64,000 bases of DNA from the sequence record MZ358387; one strand, written 5' to 3'. Source of the stretch: Shigella virus Moo19. Under the pieces are notes generated by a model. That model saw only the letters and a list, made by a program, of their open reading frames with translations. It was not told where the DNA came from and did no database searches. The position numbers and the translations under genes are program-made. Shown one piece after another: positions 30,413-61,222 of this stretch (its first letter is position 1; each line of letters begins with the position of its first letter).

Positions 30413-33400
30413 TTAGTTTACCAGATTCATCCAAGGGTTGAGGTTATGAGCACGTAAGCCCTGACCCAATCCGATAGAGTAATCCAGTCTACCATCAGCA
30501 GCAGCCGAGAACAGGTTATCCTGTAATGGCAGACCAACGTTACCAAACATGGTAGGAGTTGGAGCCAGCATAGCCATAGCTGCATGAACAGGGTTATTAC
30601 GAATCATGGACACTGCAACTTTAGTAGAACGAATCTTAAAGTTATAGAACCACATCAGACCCATGCTTTCCATGTAACCACGGAAACGACCCGGCAGACG
30701 GTCATAGTTAATGAACTCTTCGGTAACACGACCCAGAGCTTCTTCCTTACTCTTACCTTTACGCTTAGTCAGTTCATCATAGATGATTGCTTTAGCAATA
30801 AAGTCAGAGTACTCAACCGTCTTCTGGATACCCTGGAACAGAGCAGTATCCTTAGTGATAAGTGCATAACGACCAGCAGTTTGCAGCTTCTTAGGCAGCT
30901 TATCTGCTAAACGCTGCATGTACTCCTGTACCTTACCATCCGGGATTAACAGGTCATCACGAGAGATACCAGCATCAGCAATAGAAGAGAACTCACCAGC
31001 TTCCAGCAAAGGCCAGATACTCATACGCTTATAGCTATCATTGATGGACTGAATCTCAGCTTTCAGTTTACGAGCCTGGTTCGGATTAGTAGTTGCACGA
31101 AGTTCTGCTTCAGCATCAACCTGGCGAAGACGAGACTTCATATACTGGTTAATCTCAGCAGTCTTCTGAGGGATACCTTTAGCAATATCCTTAACTGGAA
31201 CACCACGGGCAACCATCTGATAGAGGTTAGCCAGGAAGTTCACAGCAGGAACCACGAGAGACTTGACCACGATTAAGGTCTTAGCCTCACGTACAACCGT
31301 CTGAGTGATATTCTCACCCTGCATAAAGTATTTGTATGCACGGTTGCCAAATACGCCCAGCATTGCTTTCTTGAAGGTATCCAAAGTCTCAGGTGACCAA
31401 CGAGAGTTACCAGTCCATACATCACCAACAGAAGCAGCACGATAACCAAGTGCATCATTCAACATGTCACGACGTACCCACAGTTCACCATTACCAAACA
31501 GTGACTCAGCTTTCTGACGAGTTTCTGCATTCATCAGACGCATAGCATCAGCAGTAACTGGGTCAAGTTTAGAACCAAGAAGGTTAATGTACTGGCTCTT
31601 ATTGCTGGTAGAATCTGCCATGTCCTTCTCGTACATAGCGTGAAGATTTTCAATCAGAGCATCGTTAAACTTCTGGGCTTTAGCTTCTTCTACCTGACGA
31701 CCTCGCCATACACCAATTGCTTTAGCAAGGTTATCCTCACCAGCAATGTGAGTCAGCATGTTAGGGTCAATAGAGTGCTCATAAGCAACCACACGACCAT
31801 TGCCATCATAGATAGGCATCAGTGGTTCATTACCACGTTCACCCTTCGCCAGAGCTTTGGTGATACGGTCAACGGAAGGCTTGTCAGTAATACGACCAGC
31901 AACCATTGTTCCCATTGTGAAGCCAGTACCAACATCCACACCACCAGCAGTATTACGAACGTTCTGGAGAATACCCTGTGAGTATGGAGCACGAGCAGCA
32001 ACCGGGCTGAAGTAGTAACCACGACTACGAGTACGTTCACCAGAGCTACCCTGATAACCAGCAATACGAGTGAATGACTTCTCACTCAGTTCGTTAAACT
32101 GGCTGTCTTCTGCAACAATCAGGTTAACACCCTGCTTAGTCTCAGAAGGAATGTAGCCTTTGTAGTGGTTCAAACGAGCACGGTCATCATTCTGTGCTTT
32201 ACGTTTCTCTTCCACACGCTGGCCTACCAGATAGGAAGTGACAAAGTCCATACCTTCGGTTTCAGTCTGAGCCAGGGAAGCTAATGCCTCACGGTCAGCC
32301 TGACTCATTGCTTCGATGGCATACAGAGTAATCAGCTTGTCTAAGGTGTCCACATCAACGGTAGATTTAACGCTGGTACGCTCACCTAACAGACGGGAGA
32401 TTGCCTCAGCATTACGCAGCAGGTTGTTACCGACAGTACCATTAATCATGTACTGAGCCAGTTGCTTAGACTTACGGTTAATCAAAGGCCAGTTACGTCC
32501 TGCCTGATTCTGGAGGTCAGCTTCCAGCTTATTAACCAGCTTATCCATTTCTTTCTGTGAAGACAGCAGGTCACGAATTTCACCCAGACTCATGGTGTCA
32601 CGCAGTACAGCAAGGTCAGTTTTACCCATACCAGTGTGCATAGCTTTCCACTCTGCATCAGTCAGCTTACGGCTGAACTTAGAAGCAATAGTGGTAGGCA
32701 GATGCTCACGGAATTGCTGACGGTCAGCCTGTACCTGAGAGCGAACAGCTTTAATCATGTCATAGACAGAAGCATTCGACTTAGTACGACCTACGATGTC
32801 ATTAACCAGGTCATAGAAAGGTTGCCATGCTTTTCCCTGGTTCATTGCAGCCATAACACCCTGTGCAACTTTCTCACCGTTCTTCTCAGTAGCAATAGCA
32901 GCTACCAATTGAGCAGCATGAGCAGTTGCCTTAACCAGTGGGTTCTTAGCATTAGCAGCAACATCACGAGCAGTATCCAGTGTGGCATCAGCCAGACGTT
33001 CTACACCATCAACAATATATTGGTTAGCACGGTCAATCATATTCCCAGTTGGGGTAGCAACAGAGTCATAGAAGGACTGAGCATTCAGGCTGGATTCCAT
33101 AATAGTTTCTGCCAGAGCATCAATACCTTCCTGAACGTTAGTTGCTTTGGTATCACCAGCAACACGCTTGTTCAGGCTATCCATTGCAGCTACGCCAATG
33201 TTAGTCAGCATTGCATCAATAGTATTACCGGATGCTTTATCTGCTTTCATAACAGGCATGTCAGTCAGTACGTTACGTACCTCTTCGCTTACCATTGCCA
33301 GACCAACAAAGGTAGGCAGTAAGGAAGAACGACCCTGAGCATCAAACTCAATATTGTTAGCACCCATCAACGTATCGAACTTCTGTTGAGCATAGTAACG

Positions 33401-36400
33401 GTCAGCAGGGTTAGTGCTGTTCGGGTCTGCCATGAAGTCTTCTACTTTCAGGTTCTTGGTAACGTGAGTGTAATACTCCTGAGCACGAGCCAGAGCAGCA
33501 GGATGAATTGCAGCCTCAGTTGCTAGTGCAGCAACAATGTTGGTGAACAGACGACGTTCTTGCATGTTCATAGTAAAACCATGCCCCTGAACATCACGAG
33601 TTACCTTAACTGCATTCACTACTGCGTCAGAGAATTTACCCTTACGCATATGTTGCTGTACCGGGTCATTACCCAGGTAGTTCGTAATGAGACGGTCAAA
33701 GGTTTGACCCAGTGAAGTAAGACGGTCATTGTTGCCATAAGCAGTGCTATGGAACAGGGTAGCCTCAGCAGTAACCGGAGCAACCGGAGGCTGTGAACGC
33801 ATCACTACAGCAGAGTTAAACAGCAGACCGGAGAACATATCTTCACCGTAAGCAGGGGCTTTCTTACGACCAAAAATGAGGCGTTTAATTGCTTCATAAA
33901 CATCTTTAACCATCCTGGTAAGAGCAGTGGTTTTCTTCTGCTTCTTAATCAGTTCATGGTTGGTTAAGCCCCATGCCATGTACTCATTCAGTGCAGCAGC
34001 TTTAGCCATTGCTGGGTCAATGAAACCGTTGGACAGATGACCATTGATAGTATCCAGTGCATCAGCGTAAGCCTCACGCATAGCCGGAGTATCTTTGGAT
34101 ACATCCAGACTACGGAACTGTTCCATCAGATTCTCGATGTTCTGTACAGCTTCATTGGTCTGGCCTTGATAGTGGTCAAGTACAGTCTCAAAAGTAGAAG
34201 CATGAACCAGTTCATGAATCAAGGTTTCCATTGATGGGCTAACCAGGTAGACAGTCTTATCTGCAAAGTTAGTCCAACCATAGATATTACCTGCATTTGC
34301 AGCTTCAATATCTTCTGGAGCAGGACGCTCTACGTTACGTTCCATTGCATACTGGTCAATCTGGTTCACGTTACCGTAAACAACCTTGTAGCCTTTAGCA
34401 GCCAGTGACTTCTGAATCTCATTCAGTACAGCAGCCTGTTCAACAGGAAGGTTGGACTCTTTAGCCAGTTTGTTAATAGCAGTCTGAGACAGCACACGAA
34501 CACCAGACTTCAGAGCACGGCCTACAGTATCAAACTTATTAGTATCGGCTACTGGAGTCTTCTCAGCTTTACGAGCCTCTTTACGAGCCTGCAATTCAGC
34601 ATCGAATAGCTCATTCAGTTTTGCTACTTGCTGGTCAACAGTCAGACCATCCAGAGAGATATTACCGTTGTTCACATAAGGGGAACCAACAGCAGCCATC
34701 TGGTCAACAGTAGTCTGTACCTGGTTCATTACCTTGTGACGGATATCGACACCCAGAGCAATGTTACGCAGGTTACGCTCAATAAGATTAACACCTGCTT
34801 TCTCAATCATATCAATCTTATACTGCCTGTCACCATCAACACGACTGATATGAGAAAGTTGTTCAAAATCCAAAGCAGAACGGGCAATACTATCAATTGC
34901 TTCATCTGATAACTTATTGAAATCTACATTTTTTACAAACTTAGAGAAGGAGTCATACACATTCTTGATAGGGTTACCCTGCCATGAAGTGTATACAGCT
35001 TCGTTAGCCTTACGGCTTGCATCAGTGATGTCATTGATACCGATGTTCATACCATCAAAGATTTTGAGAGTATTTTTCGGTGCACCTTTCATAATAGAAA
35101 GGGTCTGCATCATCATGCCGTCACCAGTACCAATCGTCATGAAAGGAATACCAGCAACACCAGCTTGTGACGGTGCATAGATGCTCATTGGCACACGCAT
35201 ACGGTCATCAAAGTTGGTAGCCAGAACCTGGTTAGCAACATCAGTATTCTCAGAACCAGCAATGTAGAAAGTCTGGGAACCAGTCTCAATCATTGGAGCT
35301 AAGTCAGACAGTGAAGCCTGAATATCGTTAAGCTCTTTCTGAGTTAAGAAGTCACCCTTCTTCCAGTTAGGGTCTTTTTCTTTTTCTGCCAGCTTCTCCT
35401 GGACACGTTGCTGGAACATGTCTTGCAGAACCAGAGACTGAATCTGGGTAGCTTTCTGAAGCTGTTCAGTGGAGTGCATCAGCCCTTCACCAACAGTATT
35501 CTGAATACCCTGTCTCATTGGTTCAACGAAAAAGTGCAGCATGTTCTCTTGCAGAGACTTCAGTTGCTCACCTTTGACAGTGAACTTCTGAGGGTCAATC
35601 TTGCCAGACATAGCAGTACCAGTGTCTTCAAGAGACAGTTTACCTTTACGCATAACTGGAACAGTACCAGTCAATGCTTTCATGTCTTCAATGAAACGAC
35701 CGAGCATAGCCTCAGCATCGGCCTCAGATGCTGCCTGCTTGCCGAACATTGCCATAGCCGGGGAAATGTCCGGGTTCTGTGCACGGGCTTGCAGAACGTC
35801 GCTGAAGCGTTCGTAGATGGCATCAGTAATTGCACTCACCATCTTGCCTGCAATACCACGAGCACCGGAACCATAAATGGTAATGGTCAGTGGGTTCTTG
35901 GCAATGCCACGTTTCAGTTCGAGGTTGCCTTCTTCATTGATGTTATAGTCAGGAATGAACAAGTCCATCAGAGAGGACAGATGATTCATCTGAGTATTAA
36001 CAGCCGGGTTATTGGCATAGGTATTTCGCAGGTTAGTCAGTGCAGCTTTCAGACCGTTAGTGGATGCTTCGTACAGGTCAACGCTATCGTCAATAGAACG
36101 ATGTTCGTTCATCGTCTTACCAGCACGACCAAAGAATAGACCACCCTTAGCAGTATTCTGTACCCATTCTTTGGTGAACTTACCACCAGTCATCAGCATC
36201 ATTGCGTTAATCGGACCGTTGGTTACACCATCAGCCTCAACGTACAGTGGAGTGTTGAACTTAGACTTGTCTTCAGCATTCAGGTAACGGGCATACTCCA
36301 TCAGAGCCATGAGAGCTACGAAGGATTTATCACCACCCAATGCAGTATTCAGAATCTCAACAGAGTTATCTGGCAGGTTCCCAGTTTTATCGAAATCAAC

Positions 36401-39400
36401 CATCATATCGACAGCAGGTTTCAAATTGCCTTCCAGTGCAGCAGTCAGTTTTGCTGACATTGCCTCACGAGACATGTTGTGAACCTTGATGCCCAATGCC
36501 TGAGCCAAGCCAACCTGGAAATCAGAGAAGGTCTGTGAGTTTTCATTGGACAGGTCAATAGTAGAAAACGTAGGCAGAATAGCTTCACGAACCAGCTTAC
36601 TGGACTGAGGATTATTCTTACCAAGCATCTGCATACGACCAACACGAGTCATGTTGTAGGCATAGTGGATTGGAGTTTCCAGTCCGTTTTCCTGTGCACG
36701 AGTTTGCTCTACCACACTAAACAAGGAATCATAAGCCATAGCTACTGACAGGTTTTTACCTTCCAGTGACTTAGCAGTATTCACATTCAGCAGTTCAGGA
36801 TTAAGCGTACCAGCACCCATCAATTCCAGAATCTTGTCACGACCCATAGCCTCATAGAAGTTAACCATAGGTTCATGAATACGGAACTCAGTAGCCTGTT
36901 CTGCTTTCAGAGCAGCTTTCTGTTCCGGGGTATTCTTAACAGCAGGGTTGCGTAACTGAGTCTGAGCCACAGAAGGTACGTCGTCACCGAAGTACATTTT
37001 CTCTTCTGGTTCTACCAACACAGCTTCTTCAATTGCTGTAGGGAATTTATTGATAGGGTCATTGTCTGCCAGCTTATCAATGGTATACAGACCAACAGTC
37101 TTAGTGGAGTCTGGGTCAATTTCAGAGACATCTAGCATAGTCTCAGTAACTTCACCTGCTTCAATAAGAGCAGACAGAATCTCAGTTGCCATAGCAACAG
37201 GGATACCTTTGGTATAACCCAGTGGTGCATTAGGGTTACGGTCAAAGCCCCAGTAAGATTCAATTTTCTGAGCCAGTGAGTTAGTAGCTTCAACGAGAGT
37301 CTGAGCATTCTCAAACATCTCAACTACACCTTCCGGTAACAGAGCCTGTTCAATACCAGTAATAGCAGCCACGTCTTTAGCATCTTTAACGGCAGCATTC
37401 TGAGTAGCAGTCAGTCGCCATTGCAGACCAGCAAGTACGGCAGTTTCAAGCAGAGAATCGTTGAACTTAAAGCTATTGCCATCTGGTTCAACAATATTCA
37501 GCAGCTTACCACCAACCCAACGGTTAGCTTCAGTGCCCTCAGCAAAACGCTTACCTACGTTCTTGTTAGACAGGAACTTAGCCAGTCGGTCATTCAGAAT
37601 GGATTTAATGTTTTCACCCGTGTTCATCAGGTCTTTATAACGACCAGATACATCAGGGGTAAGAGCAGTATTCTCACTCTGAGTAAACGTTTCGAAACGT
37701 GCATTAGAAGACAGAGCCTGACCAATATCTTTCATTGGAGACTCGGAACCAGTGGTACGAGACTTAGGTTCAGCAGGTAATGAGTAAGCAATCTTGAGGT
37801 AATTTTTTACCCCAGGCTGGCTGACATCAGTACTCCCAACCAAATCAGGATAAGCAGCGTCAATACCACTACGAGTGGATTCCACTTCATTAGTAGTTTC
37901 CTCAGTATTTTCAGTAACATCCTCGATGCTACCCTCATTGATGAGGGTAGCATCCTTTGCCTTTTCGGATTGAGGCTTAGTTACTTTCTCTGGTTCTGCC
38001 TTAGACTCAGTAAAAGGAGCACTATTTTCTACCGTCGATTCCCTATTAGGAGTTACAGTAGGTGCAGCCTCCTGAGTTTGTGCAGGAGTTTCGTCAACTT
38101 GATTCACTGGTTCATTAGTCTGTTGGGATTGAGCAGCGTCAAGATTGCCCTGACGGAACTCTTTAACCACCTGGGCAGCAGGCTTGTCCAGACGTGAATC
38201 CAATGAGGTAACATTGATATGAGAAACGTTAAGCTCCGGGTAAGCCGTAGCAAGTGCATTAGCAATATCAGCTACGGTTTTGGCTTCCAGTCCTACTTGC
38301 TGGGCAAACTTAACCGACTTGGTATCGTAAGGATTAACACCGAGTCCAGTACGACTTCTTACCCATTCACGGGAAGGGGTGAGGGCTTGGTAATGGACAG
38401 ACTTATTCTTATCCGCATTCCCAGAAATCAGATGTTCATTCAACGCTCCGACCTTGTTCTGCATGTGCTGGGCGAACTGCATAAAGTCGCTCAAATAAGC
38501 GGAAGCCAAATCGAAGTTACCAGAGTTATACGCAGACCGAATGCGTTTAGCATGTTGCAACGCAGAGTACTGGCCTTCATTAGAACGAGACTCGTCGGTT
38601 TTAATCTGTTTACCCACAATGTCTTGAGGCCGTAAACCAAGCTGTTCAGCTTTGGTATCAAACTCACGTGCTCCCTGTAATAGAGCAGCAGCGGATTGCA
38701 GGGCAGCACGTTGACGATTGTTCAACGTAATCTTGCCTTCACTCGCATGTTTCAGAACCATGTTCACTGAATCAGCGTCCAGTACTTCCGGGCTTACGTC
38801 AGCAGCCATTGCTACGTTGTTAGCCTGATTCTGGTCTGCTACATCTTCGGTCACATTCAGATTACCTTGTTCAGCTTGTTCCTGAATCATGGAATGAATG
38901 GCACGGAATGCACGAAGTACCTTTGGAGTATTCTGGATGTTAGCCATCAGACCCGAATACTGGTCGAGCACAGCATTAGCAGGACTATCTTTAGGCAGAT
39001 TGTTCAGTGCAGCAGGGTCACGGTTAACGAAGTCTTCCATCTGCATAACCATGTCGTACATATTGGCAGCAGCTTCCATCATCTGGTTCGGGTCTTCAGT
39101 AGTGTTAACTACATCAGCCAGTTTCTGGATTACCTGAACTCGGTCAGTGGAACCGTTAACAGCTTCCTGAACCACAGGAGAAGCATCAGCAAATTCTTCC
39201 GGGTTAATACGGGTAGCATTAACCAAATCACTTGCATACTGGTGTGCAGCAGCCTTCTCTTCAGGAGAGATGTCCATTGCTTCAACAGCATCAGCCATAG
39301 TTGCCTGAGCAGTATCTGCTTGTGCAGCAGCTTCCTGAGCAGCCTCAGCTACTTTAGCGTCAGCAACAGGAGAAGCCTCTTCATTGCGTCGTGCAACTTC

Positions 39401-40852
39401 TTCACCACGTTGAACCAGGATATTGGTAATAGGTGAAGCAGCTTTAGCTACGACATTACCAGCAGCGTTAAGACCAGCCAGGGTAGTACGCAGAGCAGGA
39501 CCAGCAGCAGCACTTGCAGCTTTAACAGCAGAGCCAGGAGCTTGAGCAACTCCAGCAGAGCCGAAGCCATAGAGTGCACCCAGACCAGCTTGCTCACCCA
39601 CACCTTTGAGTGTGTCACGGGTAGCATCAACGTTACTCCGAATTGCACGGTTCTGTGCATACTGACCAGTACCAGACTGAATACCTTCTTCCACAGTCTC
39701 ACGAAGCATGTTGGAACCAGCACCAGCAAGTGAACCTACTTTCAGTGGATTCAGTTCAAACTTGGATACCAGTGGACCCGTTGCAGCAGCAACCGGAGCA
39801 GTGATAGCAGCAGCATCAATACCTGTTTCAGAAGCAGTCTGACGACGAGCTTCATCTGGAGAAAGACCATCTTTGATATGTTGCTGATAAACAGGAGACT
39901 TAGCAGCCAGTTCTTCATGAGACATTTTCATAATCTCAGAAGCAGTTTGCTGATAAGCACCACCAGCTTCCATTGTGCCAATAGCAATGGCAGCAGGAGC
40001 AACCTTAGAGGCAGCATTAACCAACTGTGCAGGACGATGGCCTAATTCAGCAGCAAGTGCAATTGCACGAGCAGCTTTTTCACCACCCATTACAGCACGA
40101 CCTAATGCAGCAACCCCTTTAATAAGAGGACCACCCGTAAACAGTGAGCCTACTCCTTCGCTCAATCCATCTGTTGCAGCCATACCAGTGTCAAGAGTGT
40201 TGGCAACAGAATCATAAGCGTCACGGCCAATACGAGAAAGAGAAGCGACCAAATCACTCTCGCCATCTTTAATATCCTGTTCGTATAAACGCTGGTTTTT
40301 CTGAGCAGATAGCTGGTTCTGGTTCTGAACTACTTTACGGGAAAGATTTAAAGCATCAGACTGAAGACCATGAACACCTTCATTCAACCAGTCCATGCCA
40401 CTAGCTATGGTAGCACCAGCATTATCGTTGATAAGACCTGTTCCAAGAGAAGCAATGCCCCCAAGGGTATTAGCAACACCAAGACCAACACCAGAAAGAG
40501 AATCACCAATTGCTTCTGCATTCGTTCTCTCTCTGGATAAGTCCTGACGAACAGAATCGGCTGCATTAGCACGGCTATTAAGAATACGAAGACCTTCTTC
40601 GGTTCCATACTTAGCAATAAGTTCCATTGGGGAGGCTTGAGTAAAATCAGCCTGAAGTGAACCTGGTTCGAATGCACCAATGCCGAGATTACCTACCCGA
40701 CCTGTTTGAAGGTTATAGGCAGTATCTGGGGTGAGTTGGAAAGGGTTATACCCTTCAGCAGCTTGCTTCTGGGAGGTTGCAGTAGAGACATCGACTTGCT
40801 TAGCATTAGTGATGCTGTCTGCGAAACCTGCCAGTCTGTCAAATGTTGACAT
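30413..40852 (-). CDS. giant virion RNA polymerase (N4 gp50-like)
   Basis: ~10.4-kb ORF. Central region carries T7-like motifs ('YVEADGVTNGPINA', 'KNPLTITIYGSGARG'). ATG at 40852 has AGGAAA RBS; ORF-track start 40894 is GTG. Confidence 0.8.
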   Translation of the reverse strand: MSTFDRLAGFADSITNAKQVDVSTATSQKQAAEGYNPFQLTPDTAYNLQTGRVGNLGIGAFEPGSLQADFTQASPMELIAKYGTEEGLRILNSRANAADSVRQDLSRERTNAEAIGDSLSGVGLGVANTLGGIASLGTGLINDNAGATIASGMDWLNEGVHGLQSDALNLSRKVVQNQNQLSAQKNQRLYEQDIKDGESDLVASLSRIGRDAYDSVANTLDTGMAATDGLSEGVGSLFTGGPLIKGVAALGRAVMGGEKAARAIALAAELGHRPAQLVNAASKVAPAAIAIGTMEAGGAYQQTASEIMKMSHEELAAKSPVYQQHIKDGLSPDEARRQTASETGIDAAAITAPVAAATGPLVSKFELNPLKVGSLAGAGSNMLRETVEEGIQSGTGQYAQNRAIRSNVDATRDTLKGVGEQAGLGALYGFGSAGVAQAPGSAVKAASAAAGPALRTTLAGLNAAGNVVAKAASPITNILVQRGEEVARRNEEASPVADAKVAEAAQEAAAQADTAQATMADAVEAMDISPEEKAAAHQYASDLVNATRINPEEFADASPVVQEAVNGSTDRVQVIQKLADVVNTTEDPNQMMEAAANMYDMVMQMEDFVNRDPAALNNLPKDSPANAVLDQYSGLMANIQNTPKVLRAFRAIHSMIQEQAEQGNLNVTEDVADQNQANNVAMAADVSPEVLDADSVNMVLKHASEGKITLNNRQRAALQSAAALLQGAREFDTKAEQLGLRPQDIVGKQIKTDESRSNEGQYSALQHAKRIRSAYNSGNFDLASAYLSDFMQFAQHMQNKVGALNEHLISGNADKNKSVHYQALTPSREWVRSRTGLGVNPYDTKSVKFAQQVGLEAKTVADIANALATAYPELNVSHINVTSLDSRLDKPAAQVVKEFRQGNLDAAQSQQTNEPVNQVDETPAQTQEAAPTVTPNRESTVENSAPFTESKAEPEKVTKPQSEKAKDATLINEGSIEDVTENTEETTNEVESTRSGIDAAYPDLVGSTDVSQPGVKNYLKIAYSLPAEPKSRTTGSESPMKDIGQALSSNARFETFTQSENTALTPDVSGRYKDLMNTGENIKSILNDRLAKFLSNKNVGKRFAEGTEANRWVGGKLLNIVEPDGNSFKFNDSLLETAVLAGLQWRLTATQNAAVKDAKDVAAITGIEQALLPEGVVEMFENAQTLVEATNSLAQKIESYWGFDRNPNAPLGYTKGIPVAMATEILSALIEAGEVTETMLDVSEIDPDSTKTVGLYTIDKLADNDPINKFPTAIEEAVLVEPEEKMYFGDDVPSVAQTQLRNPAVKNTPEQKAALKAEQATEFRIHEPMVNFYEAMGRDKILELMGAGTLNPELLNVNTAKSLEGKNLSVAMAYDSLFSVVEQTRAQENGLETPIHYAYNMTRVGRMQMLGKNNPQSSKLVREAILPTFSTIDLSNENSQTFSDFQVGLAQALGIKVHNMSREAMSAKLTAALEGNLKPAVDMMVDFDKTGNLPDNSVEILNTALGGDKSFVALMALMEYARYLNAEDKSKFNTPLYVEADGVTNGPINAMMLMTGGKFTKEWVQNTAKGGLFFGRAGKTMNEHRSIDDSVDLYEASTNGLKAALTNLRNTYANNPAVNTQMNHLSSLMDLFIPDYNINEEGNLELKRGIAKNPLTITIYGSGARGIAGKMVSAITDAIYERFSDVLQARAQNPDISPAMAMFGKQAASEADAEAMLGRFIEDMKALTGTVPVMRKGKLSLEDTGTAMSGKIDPQKFTVKGEQLKSLQENMLHFFVEPMRQGIQNTVGEGLMHSTEQLQKATQIQSLVLQDMFQQRVQEKLAEKEKDPNWKKGDFLTQKELNDIQASLSDLAPMIETGSQTFYIAGSENTDVANQVLATNFDDRMRVPMSIYAPSQAGVAGIPFMTIGTGDGMMMQTLSIMKGAPKNTLKIFDGMNIGINDITDASRKANEAVYTSWQGNPIKNVYDSFSKFVKNVDFNKLSDEAIDSIARSALDFEQLSHISRVDGDRQYKIDMIEKAGVNLIERNLRNIALGVDIRHKVMNQVQTTVDQMAAVGSPYVNNGNISLDGLTVDQQVAKLNELFDAELQARKEARKAEKTPVADTNKFDTVGRALKSGVRVLSQTAINKLAKESNLPVEQAAVLNEIQKSLAAKGYKVVYGNVNQIDQYAMERNVERPAPEDIEAANAGNIYGWTNFADKTVYLVSPSMETLIHELVHASTFETVLDHYQGQTNEAVQNIENLMEQFRSLDVSKDTPAMREAYADALDTINGHLSNGFIDPAMAKAAALNEYMAWGLTNHELIKKQKKTTALTRMVKDVYEAIKRLIFGRKKAPAYGEDMFSGLLFNSAVVMRSQPPVAPVTAEATLFHSTAYGNNDRLTSLGQTFDRLITNYLGNDPVQQHMRKGKFSDAVVNAVKVTRDVQGHGFTMNMQERRLFTNIVAALATEAAIHPAALARAQEYYTHVTKNLKVEDFMADPNSTNPADRYYAQQKFDTLMGANNIEFDAQGRSSLLPTFVGLAMVSEEVRNVLTDMPVMKADKASGNTIDAMLTNIGVAAMDSLNKRVAGDTKATNVQEGIDALAETIMESSLNAQSFYDSVATPTGNMIDRANQYIVDGVERLADATLDTARDVAANAKNPLVKATAHAAQLVAAIATEKNGEKVAQGVMAAMNQGKAWQPFYDLVNDIVGRTKSNASVYDMIKAVRSQVQADRQQFREHLPTTIASKFSRKLTDAEWKAMHTGMGKTDLAVLRDTMSLGEIRDLLSSQKEMDKLVNKLEADLQNQAGRNWPLINRKSKQLAQYMINGTVGNNLLRNAEAISRLLGERTSVKSTVDVDTLDKLITLYAIEAMSQADREALASLAQTETEGMDFVTSYLVGQRVEEKRKAQNDDRARLNHYKGYIPSETKQGVNLIVAEDSQFNELSEKSFTRIAGYQGSSGERTRSRGYYFSPVAARAPYSQGILQNVRNTAGGVDVGTGFTMGTMVAGRITDKPSVDRITKALAKGERGNEPLMPIYDGNGRVVAYEHSIDPNMLTHIAGEDNLAKAIGVWRGRQVEEAKAQKFNDALIENLHAMYEKDMADSTSNKSQYINLLGSKLDPVTADAMRLMNAETRQKAESLFGNGELWVRRDMLNDALGYRAASVGDVWTGNSRWSPETLDTFKKAMLGVFGNRAYKYFMQGENITQTVVREAKTLIVVKSLVVPAVNFLANLYQMVARGVPVKDIAKGIPQKTAEINQYMKSRLRQVDAEAELRATTNPNQARKLKAEIQSINDSYKRMSIWPLLEAGEFSSIADAGISRDDLLIPDGKVQEYMQRLADKLPKKLQTAGRYALITKDTALFQGIQKTVEYSDFIAKAIIYDELTKRKGKSKEEALGRVTEEFINYDRLPGRFRGYMESMGLMWFYNFKIRSTKVAVSMIRNNPVHAAMAMLAPTPTMFGNVGLPLQDNLFSAAADGRLDYSIGLGQGLRAHNLNPWMNLVN

Positions 40853-40919
40853 AGCTTGTTTCCTGTTCAAACTTATATCTATAAGAGAACTCACTGTACA
40901 TTAAGTGAGGGTAAGAAAA

Positions 40920-40943: not shown

Positions 40944-42908
40944 TTACTGATTTTGTCTTGGTTGCATATACTCTGGCAACCCTTGTGCTTGTCTCATATA
41001 TCGAGCAGCACGCTCTCTGTTTTCTTTCTCAACTGCCCGGTCTACGGAAGCCTGAGATTGAAAGTTTCTCGGAGCCAGATTCTGTGGGTCAGCTTGAACC
41101 TGTCCTTGTGCAGCTTGCAACATTGCAGCAGCTTTCTGTACTGCTTCCTGACGTGATGGAAGCAACGCAGTGAGTGCAGTCTGACCTGTAGCAATCTTAT
41201 TCTGAGTGTTATTGAGTTGAGCAACAGCAGCGTCATAAGCTGTCTGTGCAGCCTGGATATTTTGAATAGCCTGAGCATTACCCAGATTACGAACACTTGC
41301 TTCCAGTGGTTCACCACGCTTCAATCCCTCAACCATCTGGTCTACAGCACGGTCATTAAGACGCAAGCCATTACCAGCTTCATTACTAATGAATGGGTTT
41401 AGTGCATCAATACCACGACTAATATAGCCTTCCGGTACGTTGGTCATTGCACGTTGAATAACGTTAGCAGCCATCGCCGGGGACACATTAGCACGTTGAC
41501 TAATATCATTGATACGAGCCACAACCCAATTCTTATCAGCACCCTTAAAGTCACCTTCCAGAAGTTTGGAAGCAACTTCACCTACAGTAGAGGTGTCATT
41601 CAGAGAACGTAAATAATCAGGGGTAATACCACCTGCATTATTCTCCATCAGACGAGTACCAATCATACCAGAAGCAAGAGTAGATACAGCCTGATTACCC
41701 TGAGCATCCTGAACCAGAGCAAGAGGATTAGCTCCTACTTCAGCCTGAGCAATCACAGGTTTAATCTGTTCCCAGGTCATATCTTTGTAAGCACCTGGAG
41801 AAGAGTTAGGCAGAGCAGCCCAGGTATCTTTCAAGTTGCCATTCTTACGAGCTTCAAAGATAGCCTTACCAATCTTCTCCTGATTCTCAGCAGACATTGG
41901 CTGACTAGCCCAGTTATCTCCCAGTACTTTAGGTGCAAAGTCCTGAAGAGTAGCCTGATTAATCTGGAATGCACCAACAGGGGAAGCACCCAGATTAGTC
42001 TTCATACCATCCTGATGTTTGACCACATCACCAATGCTCATCTGAGTAATTGGAGTAGAGGTTGGGGTAAAACCATACGTTGTATCATATGGAGAACCAG
42101 CACGAGTACCAGCAGTTCCTGGGGCAGAAGGAGCACCAACCCCATTGCCATAGACACCTGGGTAAGCCTGAGCAAGTAAACCTTGCAGACGAGCCTGAGC
42201 TACTGGGGACAGTTGCTTACTATATGCCTCAGCCAGGATACGAGCATCGTTGGGGTTCTCAGCACCACGAGTAATCTGAGACATAACACCCATAGCAGCC
42301 TGAGCATCAGCATCATTACGCATCTGAGTACCCAAGTTGAAACGAGATTGGTTGTTACCAATACCACCCCGTTCCTGACCTTGCAGACGACCCATAATAT
42401 CAAGAGCCTGGTCAGCAGGAAGAGTAGACAGAGCATCCCCTACCTGACTTTGTGCAGCCTGAATCTGTTTAGGGTCACCAGACTGGTAAGCCATAGCCAG
42501 TTGACGAACAGCAGGGGAAGCAGCATCCATTGCAGCGTCAGTAGTCTTAAGACGACCAAAACGGTAATCATTATAGGCATTAGTCCCAGCCTGACCTTCC
42601 TGGTTCAACAGAGTGCCAGCACGGTTATCCAGATTTTCCAGAGTACGGGTACTAATCAGATTGGGGTCAACACCCTCAAACAGAGCACCAGATGCCAGAG
42701 CATTACGGTACGCTGTAGGGTCTTGATAACGCATAGCGTTCATCATGACAGCACTGCCAGCATCCTGACGAGCAGCGTTCTGGAAGTTACCCAGTGCATC
42801 ACTCAAGCCAGTAGTGGCATTACCAATCATGTTGCCAAATGTGCGAATGCTATCACCAACTCCAGAGAAGTTAGGTGTATCAACATTACGCCAAGTAATT
42901 TGAGCCAT
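40944..42908 (-). CDS. virion structural protein, Q/A/N-rich (N4 gp51-like by position)
   Basis: AGGAA RBS before ATG 42908; 654 aa, low-complexity Gln/Ala-rich. Confidence 0.45.
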   Translation of the reverse strand: MAQITWRNVDTPNFSGVGDSIRTFGNMIGNATTGLSDALGNFQNAARQDAGSAVMMNAMRYQDPTAYRNALASGALFEGVDPNLISTRTLENLDNRAGTLLNQEGQAGTNAYNDYRFGRLKTTDAAMDAASPAVRQLAMAYQSGDPKQIQAAQSQVGDALSTLPADQALDIMGRLQGQERGGIGNNQSRFNLGTQMRNDADAQAAMGVMSQITRGAENPNDARILAEAYSKQLSPVAQARLQGLLAQAYPGVYGNGVGAPSAPGTAGTRAGSPYDTTYGFTPTSTPITQMSIGDVVKHQDGMKTNLGASPVGAFQINQATLQDFAPKVLGDNWASQPMSAENQEKIGKAIFEARKNGNLKDTWAALPNSSPGAYKDMTWEQIKPVIAQAEVGANPLALVQDAQGNQAVSTLASGMIGTRLMENNAGGITPDYLRSLNDTSTVGEVASKLLEGDFKGADKNWVVARINDISQRANVSPAMAANVIQRAMTNVPEGYISRGIDALNPFISNEAGNGLRLNDRAVDQMVEGLKRGEPLEASVRNLGNAQAIQNIQAAQTAYDAAVAQLNNTQNKIATGQTALTALLPSRQEAVQKAAAMLQAAQGQVQADPQNLAPRNFQSQASVDRAVEKENRERAARYMRQAQGLPEYMQPRQNQ

Positions 42909-42920
42909 GATGGTTTCCTA

Positions 42921-43376
42921 TTAGCGAGAAAGTTTATTCTTCTCAATGTACTCGTCAGCAGTAGATTGGTCACGGTTTTCTGCAACAGCACGACTACGTG
43001 CACGGTCTTCTAACGCAGTGTTATAAGACTTAATCGAGTTATTAAGGTTCGTGTTAGTAATGTCCTTAGTAAAGGACAACTGGTCTTTGGCTAACTTGTT
43101 AGCCTGGAAACCACCATAGATATTAGCCAATGAACCAAGAGCACCAAGTCCCAATTGGAAGGTTGGAATATTCAAGCCTAAGCCCTGAGATGCCCCACCA
43201 AACAGAGAGGTATTACCAGCAGAGGAAGTACCTGGGGAAGTGTAATCTCCCAAAGTCATGCCCGGCTGATAATTCATTGCTGGAGTATTAAAGTTTTGGT
43301 TCTGGTTGTTACCAGATAACCAGGACATCCCACCAGCATTTTGAGAGGGATTCCCTGTAAGGAAGTTCAAATCCAT
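42921..43376 (-). CDS. Gly/Asn-rich small virion protein (hypothetical)
   Basis: 151 aa, Gly/Asn/Ser-rich; packed between structural genes. Confidence 0.4.
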   Translation of the reverse strand: MDLNFLTGNPSQNAGGMSWLSGNNQNQNFNTPAMNYQPGMTLGDYTSPGTSSAGNTSLFGGASQGLGLNIPTFQLGLGALGSLANIYGGFQANKLAKDQLSFTKDITNTNLNNSIKSYNTALEDRARSRAVAENRDQSTADEYIEKNKLSR

Positions 43377-43389
43377 AAGGATTCTCCTG

Positions 43390-46032
43390 TTAATCTTTCA
43401 GTGTTAAGTCTAAGGTCATGTCAGAGAAATTGGTAATCATATCCAGAGACATACCAGCAATATCGGAACCAGTTAAGGTAGTACGAGAGAGGAAGGTATC
43501 CAGCGACTCGATAGAGACAAACTGCATTGGGTCAATTACACCCATACCATCTGTACCGAACATCTCTTCATACTTCTTATTAACAGCCATCATATCAGTA
43601 TTGTACTGCTGCATGGTTTGCTCTGCCTGACGAATGATATCAGCAGTAGAGGCATTAATGTACTGAGTAATCCCATTACCTACAGCAGAGGTAAGCTGCA
43701 TGATATTCTGAGCATTCATCATGTTAGCTGCCATAGTAGACATAGTAGTACCTGTAGCCATTGCAGTACCCACGTTCATTGCAACTACAGAGGCAATAGC
43801 AGCTACGATGAAACCAATCTTATCACCGAACAGTTGAGTAGAAGCCAACTGAAGAATAGAGATAAGAACCATTGCAGCAATGGCATTTGCCACAGCACCT
43901 ACAATTACAGCAGCTAAGCCAGCAAAGCCTAATGCAGCCCCTACAGCACCGTAAGCACCCAGGATACCAGCACCACCTGCACCAGCAGTAAATACTGATA
44001 CAACCACAGCAACCACAACTACTACGATTTTAAATGTCCCAGTTTGATACCACTTCTGCTTAACCTTCTTGTATGAGTTCATTACAAGATAGGAGCAAGC
44101 AGTAGCTAACTGAGTACTATGAGTCAGTGACATAGCACGATAAATATTGGTATGCAGTGGGATAAGGAATCCTGACTCCTCAGCATCACCCATAGCCTCT
44201 GCTACATCAATGCCAACAGACTTGTTCTTATACACCCGGTTATTATGATACAGACCCAGAACACGAAGACGGCGATAGGTGTTCTTACCATCCTGCCATA
44301 ACATTTCATACTCCTGCATGTTATAGACAGTATTGGTTTTTACTAAGTCACCCGTTTGATTATCTTTACGGAAATTGCTACGAGTAAGCTGAACATCACC
44401 AGCATAGCGAGTTCTTAGCTGGCTCTGCTTTGCACCTTCCCATGCTTGACCTGTATGAATAGTTTCAAATACGAAGTTCCACTCAATGGTCATATCATAC
44501 TTGTAACCCTTATCACTGCTAACCCTAAAGCTACGCTTAGGAATTACAGGATACTGTGGGGGTTCTGGTGGATTACCAGCAGAATGGTCACCCTCTTTCC
44601 ACCACTTATAATATGCCTCAGCAGCGGCATTAGCATCAGCAAACCCCTGGATAACAGCTTCCAATGTCGGATATTCTGGGTCAGGTGGGAATGACTCAGT
44701 AGCCATCTGGAAGAATCGATAAATATACTCTTTAGCCGTATCTTCCGGTGTATTGAGTGCACAACCGAATGTACCGTAGATGTATTGAATATCCCCAATT
44801 TTGTCGTTCTTTTTTAATTCAGTAACGACATCATCAAGCTTCCCTCCGGTTGCCTTCTTCATTGCTTTTTTGCAATCAGGGTAGATAGGGTCATTCTCTA
44901 CCCAACGTTTATCATTACGAATAGGAATGAATGGATAGAAGCGGTTATCAGACGCTGGGGTATCAAATAAAGCGTCCAGCACAGGATTACCATCCCCCTG
45001 CTTATAGATAAACAAATGAGGTTCATCAGTAGCAGTCATGGTTGTGTTGTTACTGGTGGACTGAGATACATAGAAGTTAACCAAAGATTCTTTGGTCACT
45101 TCAGTAATTGTAGTAATGGTTACCCCACCAACAGTTTCAGTCTTAGTATCGGTAGTGGTTTGCTTATCCACTCTCCCACGTTTAGATTGAGTCATCACAC
45201 GGTTATCAATGATGATAGTAGTGCCATCAGTGTTAAGAGTGAAGCCTCGTTTATAAACATTGACCCAGGAAGTCCAGTTCTGGGTAGTAGTAACAGGAGT
45301 AGTTGTTACTTCATCGGGACGACCATCACTGTACTTCTTAGTTACCTTGGTGGTGGTAGTCAGGGAAGTACTTTCTGCCTTATCTGTTTCAGACACAGTA
45401 GACCATAGAAAGGTAGACGGTAAATCACCCTCAGTAGGATAAATATCTTCTGGTCTTACTACAGGTGGTTCAACAGTAGGTTGCCTGTAATAGCTGTAAT
45501 CCACATAGAGGTAAAGAGCACCCGGAACAAAGTTCTCAGGGAAGAAGGAGATATCCGTTCCCCCATCCTGAGAAATCATGGTGATTTCGTTGGTATCCTC
45601 ATCAATATCAATTTCGAATTGTTCCATAATTCGTTCCGGATAATTTTCGTAAAGATACTGGTCACACCAATACTCAAAGTCAGCAAACCCAATCTCAGCA
45701 GATTGCACGAAAGTAGTGCTGTCTGCCTGAGTAGGTAACTGGCTGGCAACCACATCTGGGTCAACCTTAGCCAGTACACCTAATGAACTTGCTGCCATGC
45801 CTACCTTGTCATCGTAATGGTCTTTGCTCCATGAAGAGAACAAACGCATACGTACACCCGGACCATTCAGATAACTGCTTTGAATAGTGTCTGCCATAGT
45901 AAATCCTGTGTTGGAAACAATGTTCCCAATCACCACGGTCTTCATATAGTTAGGACGTTGGGCAATATCCCCAGCCAGGTTATACACTGAGGATGCTACG
46001 TAAATTTTTGTTTTCCTACTGAACAATCCCAT
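43390..46032 (-). CDS. large virion protein with Gly/Ala-rich hydrophobic segment (candidate ejection/channel protein)
   Basis: 880 aa. C-terminal third has a long hydrophobic Gly/Ala/Val tract ('KIVVVVVAVVVSVFTAGAGGAGILGAYGAVGAALGFAGLAAVIVGAVANAIAAMVLISIL'). Confidence 0.45.
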   Translation of the reverse strand: MGLFSRKTKIYVASSVYNLAGDIAQRPNYMKTVVIGNIVSNTGFTMADTIQSSYLNGPGVRMRLFSSWSKDHYDDKVGMAASSLGVLAKVDPDVVASQLPTQADSTTFVQSAEIGFADFEYWCDQYLYENYPERIMEQFEIDIDEDTNEITMISQDGGTDISFFPENFVPGALYLYVDYSYYRQPTVEPPVVRPEDIYPTEGDLPSTFLWSTVSETDKAESTSLTTTTKVTKKYSDGRPDEVTTTPVTTTQNWTSWVNVYKRGFTLNTDGTTIIIDNRVMTQSKRGRVDKQTTTDTKTETVGGVTITTITEVTKESLVNFYVSQSTSNNTTMTATDEPHLFIYKQGDGNPVLDALFDTPASDNRFYPFIPIRNDKRWVENDPIYPDCKKAMKKATGGKLDDVVTELKKNDKIGDIQYIYGTFGCALNTPEDTAKEYIYRFFQMATESFPPDPEYPTLEAVIQGFADANAAAEAYYKWWKEGDHSAGNPPEPPQYPVIPKRSFRVSSDKGYKYDMTIEWNFVFETIHTGQAWEGAKQSQLRTRYAGDVQLTRSNFRKDNQTGDLVKTNTVYNMQEYEMLWQDGKNTYRRLRVLGLYHNNRVYKNKSVGIDVAEAMGDAEESGFLIPLHTNIYRAMSLTHSTQLATACSYLVMNSYKKVKQKWYQTGTFKIVVVVVAVVVSVFTAGAGGAGILGAYGAVGAALGFAGLAAVIVGAVANAIAAMVLISILQLASTQLFGDKIGFIVAAIASVVAMNVGTAMATGTTMSTMAANMMNAQNIMQLTSAVGNGITQYINASTADIIRQAEQTMQQYNTDMMAVNKKYEEMFGTDGMGVIDPMQFVSIESLDTFLSRTTLTGSDIAGMSLDMITNFSDMTLDLTLKD

Positions 46033-46037
46033 GTTAC

Positions 46038-46877
46038 TTACCCGTTAAGATTATTGTTACGTTTCAGGGTAGTCAGAACATCATCGATGCTGGAGTTAGT
46101 GAATCCATTAGGTGGAGTCAGACCTTCATCAATGGTTTTCTGAGTAATCCATGCGTCAGTAAACAGCTTGGATGCTTTAACTTCTGCATCACGCTGGTAG
46201 CTAGTAATCTGCTGAGTATACAGTTCTTTCTGTTTACCAATAGAACCAGAAACAGTAGCACCGTCAGACCGTTTATCCAGAGTCTGTGCACGTTGTGCTT
46301 CAGTCTGCTCGATAAGCAGTTTGAGTTGCTGAGGCAGAGTCTGTTCTACATTGAACAATGCAGCACAGTAAGTCTCAGATTCAGTAGAGAGTTTGAGCTT
46401 GGTAAGAGCATATTCACTCTTAGCATTCAGTGCCTGGAACTTAGCCAGCACGTACTGAGCTTTAGAAGTAGCCAATGCAACACGAGCACTAACAGCCTGA
46501 ATCTGTGCCATAGCAGCAGCCCAGTAAGCCTGGTCACGACCTAACAGATACTGAGTGGCATTGCCCATACAGGTCTCTACAATAGCAATATATGCTTTGG
46601 TGTATTCACCACCAGTAATACGACCTTCCTTGAACTCCTGCTTAAGGTGAGCAGCAGCAGAAGCCATCAGTGCATCGAATGTACCGGAACCACCAACAAC
46701 ACGGGTAGTCAGGTCTTCATTAGTAAGTCGGGTTACTTCTGCAAAGATAGGGGAACCGTCCCCACCTGGGATATCCCATTCAGGACCGGACATATCAATA
46801 TCGGGTAGGGCAAAGTCCTCGCCCTCAGTTAATGCTAACAACAGTCGGTTAGCTTCTACCTCTGCACCACATGACAT
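46038..46877 (-). CDS. virion structural protein (N4 gp54-like by position)
   Basis: Start set at ATG 46877 (GAGGAAA RBS) because the hairpin and U-run abut the first ATG at 46892. Confidence 0.45.
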
Positions 46878-46895
46878 GATGTATTTCCTCATGGT

Positions 46896-47611: not shown

Positions 47612-47641
47612 TCATAAATAAGGGGGAGGTTCCCCTCCCCG
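47612..47641 (-). terminator. terminator-like hairpin downstream of the major capsid gene
   Basis: 7-bp G/C stem ggggagg/cctcccc, 14 nt after the capsid stop codon. Confidence 0.5.
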
Positions 47642-52793: not shown

Positions 52794-53294
52794 CTATTGT
52801 AAAAGTTTCCGGTCGGCCTTGATTTGGTTCCCCAACTCAATCAATTGGTTGTCACGGAGTCTAACAGTTGCCCTGAGTTCTTCAACCACTCGTCTGCCTT
52901 GTTCAAGACTGGAGTCGAGTTCGGCTGCATGGCTTGCAAGACTTCTGCACTCAAAGGTTCCGGCTTCGGCTTGACGTTTATATACGTCGGCTCTTTTGCT
53001 TGATTGCTGCATCCGGCTGTCGTAATCACTGCTAAGGCGAGCAAGCTCGCCTGCGTAATTACTCTCAGCCGTCTGCAATCTGGTAGTGAGCATACCGACT
53101 TCATAGCTGTGTTGTCTGTTAAGGACATCGTATTCACCCTTAAGTTTATTGTAGGCTTTCTGGTCTTCTACTTTCTGAGCATCCCACTTGGCCTGAACTT
53201 TATCCTGACCATTACTGGAACCCCAAAAGTAAATGGTGGCTCCCAAAGCCACCACTACCAGATAAGGCCAACCTTTAGAGATTAGCGTCATCAT
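52794..53294 (-). CDS. i-spanin (Rz-like)
   Basis: GGAGG RBS then ATG 53294. N-terminal TM '[17 protein letters not shown]' followed by a coiled coil. Confidence 0.55.
52841..53128 (-). CDS. o-spanin (Rz1-like lipoprotein) embedded in the i-spanin gene in another frame
   Basis: Hydrophobic signal '[14 protein letters not shown]' with lipobox Cys, then a Pro-rich mature part ('[11 protein letters not shown]...'). Start uncertain (53128 or 53104). Confidence 0.5.
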   Translation of the reverse strand: MSLTDNTAMKSVCSLPDCRRLRVITQASLLALAVITTAGCSNQAKEPTYINVKPKPEPLSAEVLQAMQPNSTPVLNKADEWLKNSGQLLDSVTTN

Positions 53295-53910
53295 TACATG
53301 CCTCCAGAGGCACATTACCAATACGGTTTGATATCCAGCCATACGTATAGTCAGGCATGTTTAACGAGGTGTAGTGATTAAGTTGTTTACCATCCAATAG
53401 CTTAATCATAGTCTTACAGGCTTCTACTTTGCCTCGTTTTTTCTGGAGTGCCCTATACGAGTTAATGGTTGCTGTACCAACTTTACCATCAACTTGTATT
53501 TTAGGGTAGTCTTTGCCATTACGACTAACGTCATTCAAAGACTCTTGAAGCCAACGTGCTGGACGTGGTGTCCCAGTGTTTACTCCAGCATCCACCAGCT
53601 TGTGGGTCACAGCAGGACTAATAGAAGCGAACTCAATAAAGTTTGGCTTGATAATGTAGTCATCAACATAAACTTCAGCAGCCATCTCTTTAGTAAGTCC
53701 TTTCATAGTCCCATCCCATCCGTATTTCTTTGCTAAGACTTCCTTGTGGGACTGGGCTACTTTCTTAGTTATCCCGTGATTAGTTTCCCCTCCTGGGTCT
53801 TTGGGGTCATTTACATAACCACCTTCCAGCATAAAAACGGAACCAAGAATGGCAGCAACTACTGCTCCCACTGCACCACCCCTGGTTGCTAGTTTTTTAT
53901 TTATTGCCAT
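53275..53910 (-). CDS. SAR endolysin, GH108-type N-acetylmuramidase
   Basis: AGAGGAGG RBS then ATG 53910. N-terminal Gly/Ala-rich weak TM 'GGAVGAVVAAILGSVFML' followed by 'EGGYVNDPKDPGGETNHGIT'. Confidence 0.7.
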   Translation of the reverse strand: MAINKKLATRGGAVGAVVAAILGSVFMLEGGYVNDPKDPGGETNHGITKKVAQSHKEVLAKKYGWDGTMKGLTKEMAAEVYVDDYIIKPNFIEFASISPAVTHKLVDAGVNTGTPRPARWLQESLNDVSRNGKDYPKIQVDGKVGTATINSYRALQKKRGKVEACKTMIKLLDGKQLNHYTSLNMPDYTYGWISNRIGNVPLEACNDDANL

Positions 53911-54163
53911 GATAGTCCTCCTCTTTAGGCTTTAAACGAATAAGCCTGCCAACGATGTTCAAGGCAAATAAGCCAATGGCAACACCTGAACCATGTGGAA
54001 TCTGGTCAAGCAGATGTCTTGGCAAACCTGAGAACATTGGCTGGATTATATCGACGGCAGAGAAGAGAATCAGACCAATAGTACTAATCTGGATAGAAGC
54101 CCATTTCCAGGCTCGTTTCCAGTTAGGTACTAGTTCAACCCTTTTGGTTAACCTGCGAACCAT
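53897..54163 (-). CDS. holin (two TM helices; pinholin candidate)
   Basis: TAAGGAGA RBS then ATG 54163. Two hydrophobic helices and a charged C-terminus; overlaps the endolysin start by 14 nt. Confidence 0.5.
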   Translation of the reverse strand: MVRRLTKRVELVPNWKRAWKWASIQISTIGLILFSAVDIIQPMFSGLPRHLLDQIPHGSGVAIGLFALNIVGRLIRLKPKEEDYHGNK

Positions 54164-54477
54164 GCGAAAATCTCCTTACGTGCTGCAACCAACAGACTTA
54201 AGATTGCACCTGCTGCTGCCCATACCCACTTACCAAAGATTCCTGCACCAACTACCTTGTGCTTAATGGTAATGAACTCTTCGATGGTAGGCTCATTTTT
54301 AGCAAGACTCTCTTCAACATTCTTAAGTCTGTTACTAACTTCAGCAACTGAGTCCTTAAGATTGGTGATGGAGTTTTCCAGCTTTGCTCGGTCATTCCTT
54401 TCACGTTCCTGGTTCTCGAACATGGTTTTAAATCGTTCCTCCAGTCGAGCCAGTAATACATCAGTGGGTTCAGACAT
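54148..54477 (-). CDS. C-terminally membrane-anchored coiled-coil protein (antiholin/lysis-regulator candidate)
   Basis: Cytoplasmic coiled coil then one C-terminal TM 'VVGAGIFGKWVWAAAGAILSLLVAA'. Start at ATG 54477; ORF-track start 54507 is GTG. Confidence 0.35.
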   Translation of the reverse strand: MSEPTDVLLARLEERFKTMFENQERERNDRAKLENSITNLKDSVAEVSNRLKNVEESLAKNEPTIEEFITIKHKVVGAGIFGKWVWAAAGAILSLLVAARKEIFAWFAG

Positions 54478-54535
54478 AATAATTTTCCACGTAGTAATAA
54501 TATGCACCAGGAATAATACTTATAAACGCTAGCCT

Positions 54536-54567
54536 ACGAAAGGAAAAAGCCCCCATTAAGGAGGCTT
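54536..54567 (-). terminator. terminator-like hairpin downstream of the tail-spike gene
   Basis: Stem aagcccc/gaggctt (one mismatch) with U-rich flank on both strands. Confidence 0.45.
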
Positions 54568-54573
54568 ACTTTT

Positions 54574-57204: not shown

Positions 57205-57212
57205 AAGAACCT

Positions 57213-57240
57213 CTTTAAAAAGCCCTACCTAAGTAGGGCA
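57213..57240 (-). terminator. rho-independent terminator downstream of the SGNH tail-fibre gene
   Basis: Stem gccctac/gtagggc, loop 'ttag' on the minus strand, then UUUUU. Confidence 0.6.
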
Positions 57241-57260
57241 TTAAATGAAAATTGGAGAGG

Positions 57261-61216: not shown

Positions 61217-61222
61217 AGTTCC

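Follow-up and report, generated by a model that had tools for sequence, protein, structure and literature searches.

A hydrophobic tract in an N4 gp53 ortholog of Shigella virus Moo19 very probably forms part of a tail plug

Introduction

In the genome of Shigella virus Moo19 (sequence record MZ358387), an open reading frame (ORF) of 880 residues encodes a protein with a long hydrophobic tract rich in Gly, Ala, and Val, which raises the question of what such a tract does in a phage that has to deliver a 380-kDa virion RNA polymerase (vRNAP). An earlier note, made from the sequence alone, had likened the tract to the membrane-inserting segments of ejection proteins and proposed that the protein forms a channel. 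We examined the locus within a window of 64,000 nucleotides, which is the whole stretch of DNA that was analyzed and to which all coordinates refer. Our analysis leads to a different answer: the protein is very probably the monomeric tail plug of an N4-like podophage (family Schitoviridae), in which the tract and the helices at residues 29-56 cork the tail tube while the rest of the C-terminal region lies in the lumen. A feature of this kind is already known from the structures of N4 and DEV, which were published in 2025-2026, and nothing about the Moo19 feature is new in kind.

Results

Sequence comparison identifies an ortholog of N4 gp53

The ORF is intact, begins with ATG, and encodes a protein with a computed mass of 97.5 kDa (Table 1). 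A Pfam search with the 880-aa sequence gave no match. PHROG 2220, which carries the label 'unknown function', matched it end to end (E 2e-300), and a PDB sequence search aligned residues 1-878 with 9YFT 'Gp53' (885 aa; E=0). Global alignment with N4 gp53 from NC_008720 gave 55.1% identity. The PDB search also found 9ZE4_M, 'N4 gp53-like protein' (E=2e-18), in a match that includes the hydrophobic tract. It returned plug proteins only, and no ejection protein with proven pore activity was among them. The core fold is that of the Schitoviridae tail-plug family (N4 gp53 / DEV gp74, PHROG 2220).

The surroundings of the gene were also those of the family. The order vRNAP, gp51, gp52, plug ORF, gp54 tube, gp55, and capsid is the same as in N4 and Bp4, with the plug ORF between the tail-tube gene and the gp52-gp51-vRNAP cassette, all on one strand. 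Upstream, the tail-tube gene ends 5 nt before its ATG, and the downstream gene begins 13 nt past its own stop, so that tail tube, plug, and next ORF form a tightly packed trio. The tail-tube ORF matched N4 Gp54 (9LC0/9YF4/9YFT) with E 3e-117, and the 151-aa ORF downstream of the plug ORF matched the 9YF4 '16.5 kDa protein' (E 3e-45) and the 8VXQ 'N4 gp52-like protein' (E 7e-6). A promoter scan around the plug ORF found fewer sigma-70-like sites than in shuffles, and a terminator scan found none between the plug ORF and its neighbors, the sole strong terminator being 3' of the capsid gene (47623-47640). Based on homology and shared gene position, which the neighbors confirm, we conclude that ORF 43390..46032 is an ortholog of the N4 gp53 tail plug. 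The closest records in the phage collection, all Gamaleyavirus and relatives, had only ~77% DNA identity. Where related GenBank records use the label 'tape measure protein', it refers to the gp57 homolog and not to the plug gene.

Table 1. Coordinates in the window of the proposed plug gene, its parts, and the neighboring genes of the cassette.
Feature	Position	Strand	Basis
Tail plug gene (assigned), 880 aa, N4 gp53 ortholog, corresponding to Moo19 gp70	43390..46032	-	Full-length homology and gene order
N-terminal helices, aa 29-56, first knot half in N4	45865..45948	-	Gap-free alignment to N4 29-56, 68% identity
'Beta-feather' protrusion, Thr/Ser-rich long beta-hairpins, aa ~211-333	45034..45402	-	AF2 strands
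Gly/Ala/Val-rich helices, aa 669-715, second knot half, core of the tract described in the earlier note	43888..44028	-	Gap-free alignment to N4 670-716, 72% identity
Two more apolar helices, aa 716-760	43753..43887	-	AF2 706-735 and 737-760; Hessa -0.7, +1.9; moment about 0.03-0.17
Met-rich conserved C-terminal tail, aa 761-880	43393..43752	-	Met count, conservation
Tail-tube protein, N4 gp54 homolog, Moo19 gp71; 12-mer, proposed to be sealed by the plug	46038..46892	-	279/279 identical to 9D80_C
N4 gp52 / DEV gp73 homolog, 151 aa, small pore-forming ejection protein	42921..43376	-	PDB sequence matches
N4 gp51 homolog, 654 aa, ejection protein of the periplasmic tunnel	40944..42908	-	11MN '66 kDa protein' E 3e-140; PHROG 6126
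vRNAP, 3493 aa, 380 kDa	30413..40894	-	ORF list, molecular weight, synteny with Bp4 and N4 gp50

The tract is uniformly apolar and of membrane grade

The tract proved to be real and larger than the roughly 60 residues originally described. A Gly/Ala/Val-rich run of 68 residues (aa 669-736) contains no D, E, K, or R, and charged or strongly polar residues are absent from aa 669-715. A single Asp-Lys pair ends the run and is followed by another apolar helix (aa 739-760). Together, the run and this third apolar helix occupy nucleotides 43753..44028 (-), or 76-86% of the chain, which places the tract toward the C-terminus as had been stated, but in the last quarter of the protein rather than near its C-terminal third. 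Kyte-Doolittle values in 19-residue windows reached 2.56, and G, A, and V made up 41/60 positions in the richest 60-residue window. When the plug protein was shuffled 20,000 times, no shuffle equalled the charge-free run (shuffle mean 25, max 67; z = 8.0), the 60-residue hydrophobicity (z = 8.4), or the G/A/V density (z = 11.5).

With the scale values of the published table, Hessa sums over 19-residue windows were about +0.2 (669-687), -0.7 (706-724), and +1.9 kcal/mol (741-759), which by sequence calculation makes these three windows within 669-760 membrane-grade hydrophobic helices. They were the only such segments by Hessa sums in the vRNAP-gp51-gp52-gp53-gp54 cassette, in which the minimum for the gp52-like protein was 6.9 and no vRNAP window fell below 3. 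The tract helices are uniformly apolar, with a hydrophobic moment of at most 0.23, and are not amphipathic. In this respect the earlier note was right: the segments have the hydrophobicity that a place in a membrane would require.

The tract aligns with one half of the N4 hydrophobic knot

In N4, cryo-EM identified gp53 as a monomeric tail plug, of which each virion has one copy (Bellis et al., Nat Commun 2026, PMC13434306). Residues 29-56 and 670-716 of that protein build a knot of six short alpha-helices in the mouth of the tail tube, and the model covers residues 9-724 only, with the last ~160 residues in the tail lumen (PMC13434306). Both knot segments align with the Moo19 protein without gaps, and both are more similar to N4 gp53 (68% and 72% identity) than the protein as a whole. 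Based on this gap-free mapping, the tract corresponds to the second knot half together with the next two apolar helices, which lie largely past the last modeled N4 residue (724). The two proteins also resemble each other in length (880 vs 885 aa), gene position, bipartite knot, beta-feather, and conserved C-terminal tail.

We also obtained an AF2 model from a 73-sequence alignment. This model was confident for aa ~7-660, which include the core and four feather strands of ~30 residues each (211-234, 241-270, 272-301, and 304-333; pLDDT mostly 85-93), and it placed helices at aa 29-39 and 46-55. The beta-feather, which has been described for N4 gp53 and is missing from DEV gp74 (PMC13434306), is the least conserved part of the protein (38% identical to N4). 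Helices were predicted throughout 665-760, with pLDDT below 50 across 663-880, and the knot was not reproduced by the model. These low-confidence helices argue weakly against a buried beta-structure for the tract, and the six short alpha-helices of the N4 knot (PMC13434306) point the same way. The tail beyond the apolar helices is rich in Met, with 13 in aa 750-840 (14% vs 3.9% overall).

The tract and the C-terminal tail are conserved across the family

We compared 241 relatives with a length of 650 aa or more. Their longest charge-free run had a median length of 62 aa, consisted to ~50% of G/A/V, and ended a median of 154 aa before the C-terminus. The tract is also present in a short class of proteins that have no feather and in gp33 of Shigella phage B2. 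This conservation across relatives indicates that the hydrophobic tract is a family feature and not a local accident. Within the 73-sequence set, the near-invariant positions were G689, L691, G692, V697, G698, G702, G705, A708, G712, N716, A719, A720, G736, and G740, a glycine pattern that fits tight, specific packing of the predicted helices. In the C-terminal tail of the same relatives, E842, R850, T851, and G855 were invariant, and F847 and L848 nearly so. With relatives down to 31% identity, mean column identity was 0.59-0.64 for the tract and 0.43-0.55 for most of the core; it was higher than in the tract at aa 1-28 (0.76) and aa 601-668 (0.69).

A search of 1.84 billion representatives with the C-terminal 226 residues gave 955 matches. 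In the full-length relatives listed among them, this module stands at the extreme C-terminus of proteins of ~700-930 aa, and no other protein context appeared among the matches listed. The matches listed fall into two length classes: proteins of ~890 aa have the feather, and those of ~740 aa lack it.

The protein is apparently Moo19 gp70, a virion component

The earlier note had also held that the product is a virion protein, and this view is borne out by data on Moo19 particles. The tail-tube ORF is identical at 279/279 positions to the Moo19 'Tail protein' of PDB 9D80, and an ORF of 1086 aa matches the tailspike of 9D80/9D81 over 1086/1086 positions (2528 bits). Among the proteins that mass spectrometry identified in virions purified with CsCl is Moo19 gp70, a hypothetical protein of 96 kDa described as 'similar to N4 gp53' (PMC11654681, Table 1). 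The gene order and masses in the window fit that table, and together with the tube and the tailspike they indicate that gp70 (PMC11654681) and the product of ORF 43390..46032 are apparently the same protein. The Moo19 map contains a weak density at the tube's distal end, at the site expected for a plug, which its authors did not assign (PMC11654681).

The tail around the plug differs from that of N4. In N4, the plug core binds domains D9-D10 of one copy of the sheath protein gp65, with a 12:6:1 symmetry mismatch (PMC13434306). A tblastn search with N4 proteins of the window, which holds all but ~8 kb of the genome, found no homolog of gp64 or gp65 at E <=1e-3. N4 gp66 matched over its first ~50 aa only, at the N-terminus of the 1086-aa tailspike, and the large tail ORFs encode G7C/CBA120-type tailspikes. 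In contrast to N4, where gp65 D9-D10 holds the plug, Moo19 thus has G7C-type tailspikes and no gp64/gp65 homolog in the window, which indicates that N4-type anchoring of the plug cannot apply and that the gating contact must differ.

Discussion

What is known and what is extended from N4 can be told apart. The position of the plug, its monomeric state, its knot, and its retention on empty particles are known for N4 by cryo-EM; by analogy, the same arrangement and trigger would be expected in Moo19. For the Moo19 phage itself, comparison of sequences can be regarded as having established that the protein is an ortholog, which of its residues map to those of N4, how far it is conserved across the family, and in what gene context it lies.

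On the N4 precedent, one plug copy would cap the dodecameric tail tube at its distal end, with the confidently folded residues ~1-660, which comprise the globular core and the beta-feather, outside the tube. Residues 29-56 and 669-715 would intertwine to form a compact 'hydrophobic knot' that is shielded from solvent and pushed cork-like into the tube mouth, in which small Gly and Ala side chains would permit very tight packing of the helices. The remaining ~160 residues, with the two apolar helices and the Met-rich tail, would run up the lumen beside the stored gp52-like protein. Engagement of the receptor by a tail fiber or spike would then dislodge the plug sideways, after which the gp52-like pore former would exit, followed in turn by the gp51-like protein that forms the periplasmic tunnel, by vRNAP (380 kDa), and by the DNA. 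This sequence of events follows the proposal for N4, in which receptor binding displaces the plug and gp52, gp51, vRNAP, and DNA leave thereafter (PMC13434306).

The assignment turns a protein annotated as 'hypothetical protein' into a likely tail plug and names gp70 as the candidate for the tail-tip density of Moo19. It also moves the channel-forming role from the plug to the adjacent homologs of gp52 and gp51. Pore activity in bilayers has been measured for the gp52 and gp51 class in DEV and N4, without gp53 (PMC11445570, PMC13434306), and their homologs in the window are the two ORFs directly downstream of the plug gene. The N4 residues homologous to the tract are a knot in the tube mouth, present in a single copy and kept on empty particles, which argues against the suggested channel-forming, membrane-inserting ejection protein. 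A part in ejection can be retained, as that of a gate if the N4 ortholog is a guide, but not as that of a channel.

Some observations sit less easily with a plug. Membrane-grade helices are not obviously needed by a cork alone, the AF2 model gives no independent reproduction of the knot, the authors of the Moo19 map left the distal density without an assignment, and the N4 anchoring partner is without a homolog in the window.

We considered whether the protein might be both cork and membrane-active element. In such a scheme, the uncorked knot would unravel, and helices 669-760 with the Met-rich tail would insert into the outer membrane to pilot or nucleate the gp52 pore. These helices are the only membrane-grade segments in the cassette from vRNAP to tube and are uniformly apolar; in addition, the conserved 160 lumenal residues have no assigned role, and in N4 the C-terminal residues of gp53 adjoin gp52 in the lumen (PMC13434306). 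However, the N4 plug gives strong density and is seated on full and empty particles alike (PMC13434306), a single copy cannot line a channel of ~35 A, the pore activity of gp52 and gp51 needed no gp53, and no experiment puts gp53 in a membrane. The empty N4 particles had lost their DNA in vitro and not during infection, which tempers the argument from retention. On balance, we regard this dual role as unlikely. A version in which helices 669-760 and the C-terminal tail leave the lumen first and seed the gp52 pore in the outer membrane, and in which insertion could also shift the plug off the tube axis in phages without a sheath such as Moo19, where no counterpart of N4 gp65 is known to hold the plug, appears similarly doubtful.

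It is very improbable that the helices serve during assembly instead, entering the inner membrane of the producing cell as the protein is synthesized and only staging or chaperoning the plug before tail addition. Judging from the Hessa sums, segments this hydrophobic would be recognized by SRP/YidC, and some related records label homologs 'TMhelix containing protein'. In N4, however, the segment is an integral and ordered part of the mature virion, and the glycines and N716, which hardly vary among relatives, speak for a specific packed fold and not for a generic anchor. It is scarcely conceivable that the C-terminal ~210 residues act chiefly as a lumenal ruler or sensor that contacts gp52 or the DNA end and couples plug release to the release of the ejection proteins, with corking secondary: the ~160 residues and an unassigned double ring of density in the N4 lumen (PMC13434306), the strong conservation of the extreme C-terminus (E842, F847, L848, R850, T851, G855), and the invariably C-terminal position of the module among the full-length relatives listed would suit such a role, yet this region is resolved in no structure and has low AF2 confidence, and such a role would fit within the plug model instead of competing with it.

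The tail plug therefore remains our preferred reading, and it can be set beside other phage proteins. DEV gp74 is a conserved homologous plug that is held by a different receptor-binding fiber, the loss of which leads to DNA leakage (PMC12892993). The hydrophobic tract and the C-terminal motif are common to DEV gp74 (9ZE4 chain M) and the Moo19 protein, whereas the DEV protein has 740 aa, is without the feather, shows 12-14% identity over the aligned structure, and is stabilized by the gp56-gp55-gp54 receptor-binding fiber. T7 gp14, P22 gp7, DEV gp73, and N4 gp52 share with the plug that they are virion-borne and hydrophobic and that they belong to the first step of envelope penetration. These pore formers are small, multi-copy, ejected proteins that form channel oligomers and have no sequence relationship to the plug, whereas the plug family is large and, judging by copy number and retention in N4, single-copy and kept on the particle. 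The tail needle gp26 of P22 and Sf6, a trimeric coiled coil in the channel, is a functional analog, also discussed in PMC12892993: it closes a podophage tail channel and is displaced on receptor engagement. In contrast to gp26, the plug would be a monomer that meets the tube with a 12:1 mismatch and uses a hydrophobic helical knot as its cork.

The plug is conserved in its C-terminal tail and in phage B2

The plug, the 880-residue ortholog of N4 gp53 that very probably seals the tail tube, ends in a lumenal C-terminal tail that is rich in methionine (13 of 91 residues, or 14%, vs 3.9% overall). This tail is closed by a strongly conserved motif, ES.D.FLSRT..TG, which lies around E842, F847, L848, R850, T851 and G855 and is still recognizable in gp74, the plug of the Pseudomonas phage DEV. 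Using hhalign, we found a clear plug homolog of the gp53 family in Shigella phage B2 (gp33; probability 100%, E 3e-70), which contains a charge-free tract of 62 residues (aa 563-624). This match is at odds with Table 1 of the Moo19/B2 paper, where the gp53 homolog of B2 is entered as 'N/A' (PMC11654681).

In the RefSeq record of Escherichia phage Bp4 (NC_024142), the gp53 homolog is divided between two CDS (L001:3349-6002) and the gp51 homolog among three, a pattern suggestive of frameshifts or of errors in the sequencing. The match region in Shigella phage pSb-1 likewise covers two 'hypothetical proteins'.

Assignment of the ejection proteins and the adaptor

The N4 cryo-EM paper contradicts itself on how the outer-membrane complex and the periplasmic tunnel are divided between gp51 and gp52, and on the DEV equivalents of the two proteins, with the abstract and one Results sentence set against Fig. 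8 and Methods (PMC13434306). Protein sizes and PDB matches support gp52 (150 aa), the equivalent of DEV gp73, as the outer-membrane pore and gp51 as the tunnel.

Table 1 of the Moo19/B2 paper labels the 70-kDa Moo19 gp68 'Adaptor' (PMC11654681). We rejected this label, since the 654-aa ORF is a homolog of the N4 gp51 ejection protein. The candidate ORF listed below instead fits the modelled 234-residue adaptor (PMC11654681).

Features of the tail and ejection gene regions
Feature	Position	Strand	Details
N4 gp51 ejection-protein homolog	40944-42908	-	654 aa, 69.5 kDa; 11MN match, E 3e-140
Met-rich lumenal C-terminal tail of plug	43393-43782	-	aa 750-880
Strong terminator-like hairpin	47623-47640	-	7-bp stem, 6 G-C pairs, T-rich tail
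Endolysin	53275-53910	-	In place of sheath genes, region 52800-61300
G7C gp66-like protein	54574-57204	-	876 aa; region 52800-61300
Esterase tailspike	57261-60521	-	1086 aa; region 52800-61300
Adaptor candidate ORF	60512-61216	-	234 aa, 27 kDa; PHROG 2125
B2 gp33	L002:33418-35745	-	775 aa; gp53-family plug homolog by hhalign

Tail region and gene layout

A tblastn search of the window with the N4 sheath proteins gp64 and gp65 detected no homolog of either, in 52800-61300 (-) or elsewhere. N4 gp66 resembles the esterase tailspike only over the first ~50 aa of the latter.

The terminator-like hairpin listed above lies directly 3' of the major capsid gene. The terminator scan revealed no such hairpin separating the genes for gp55, the tube, the plug, gp52 and gp51, a layout that fits an attenuated read-through to the low-copy genes of the tail and ejection proteins.
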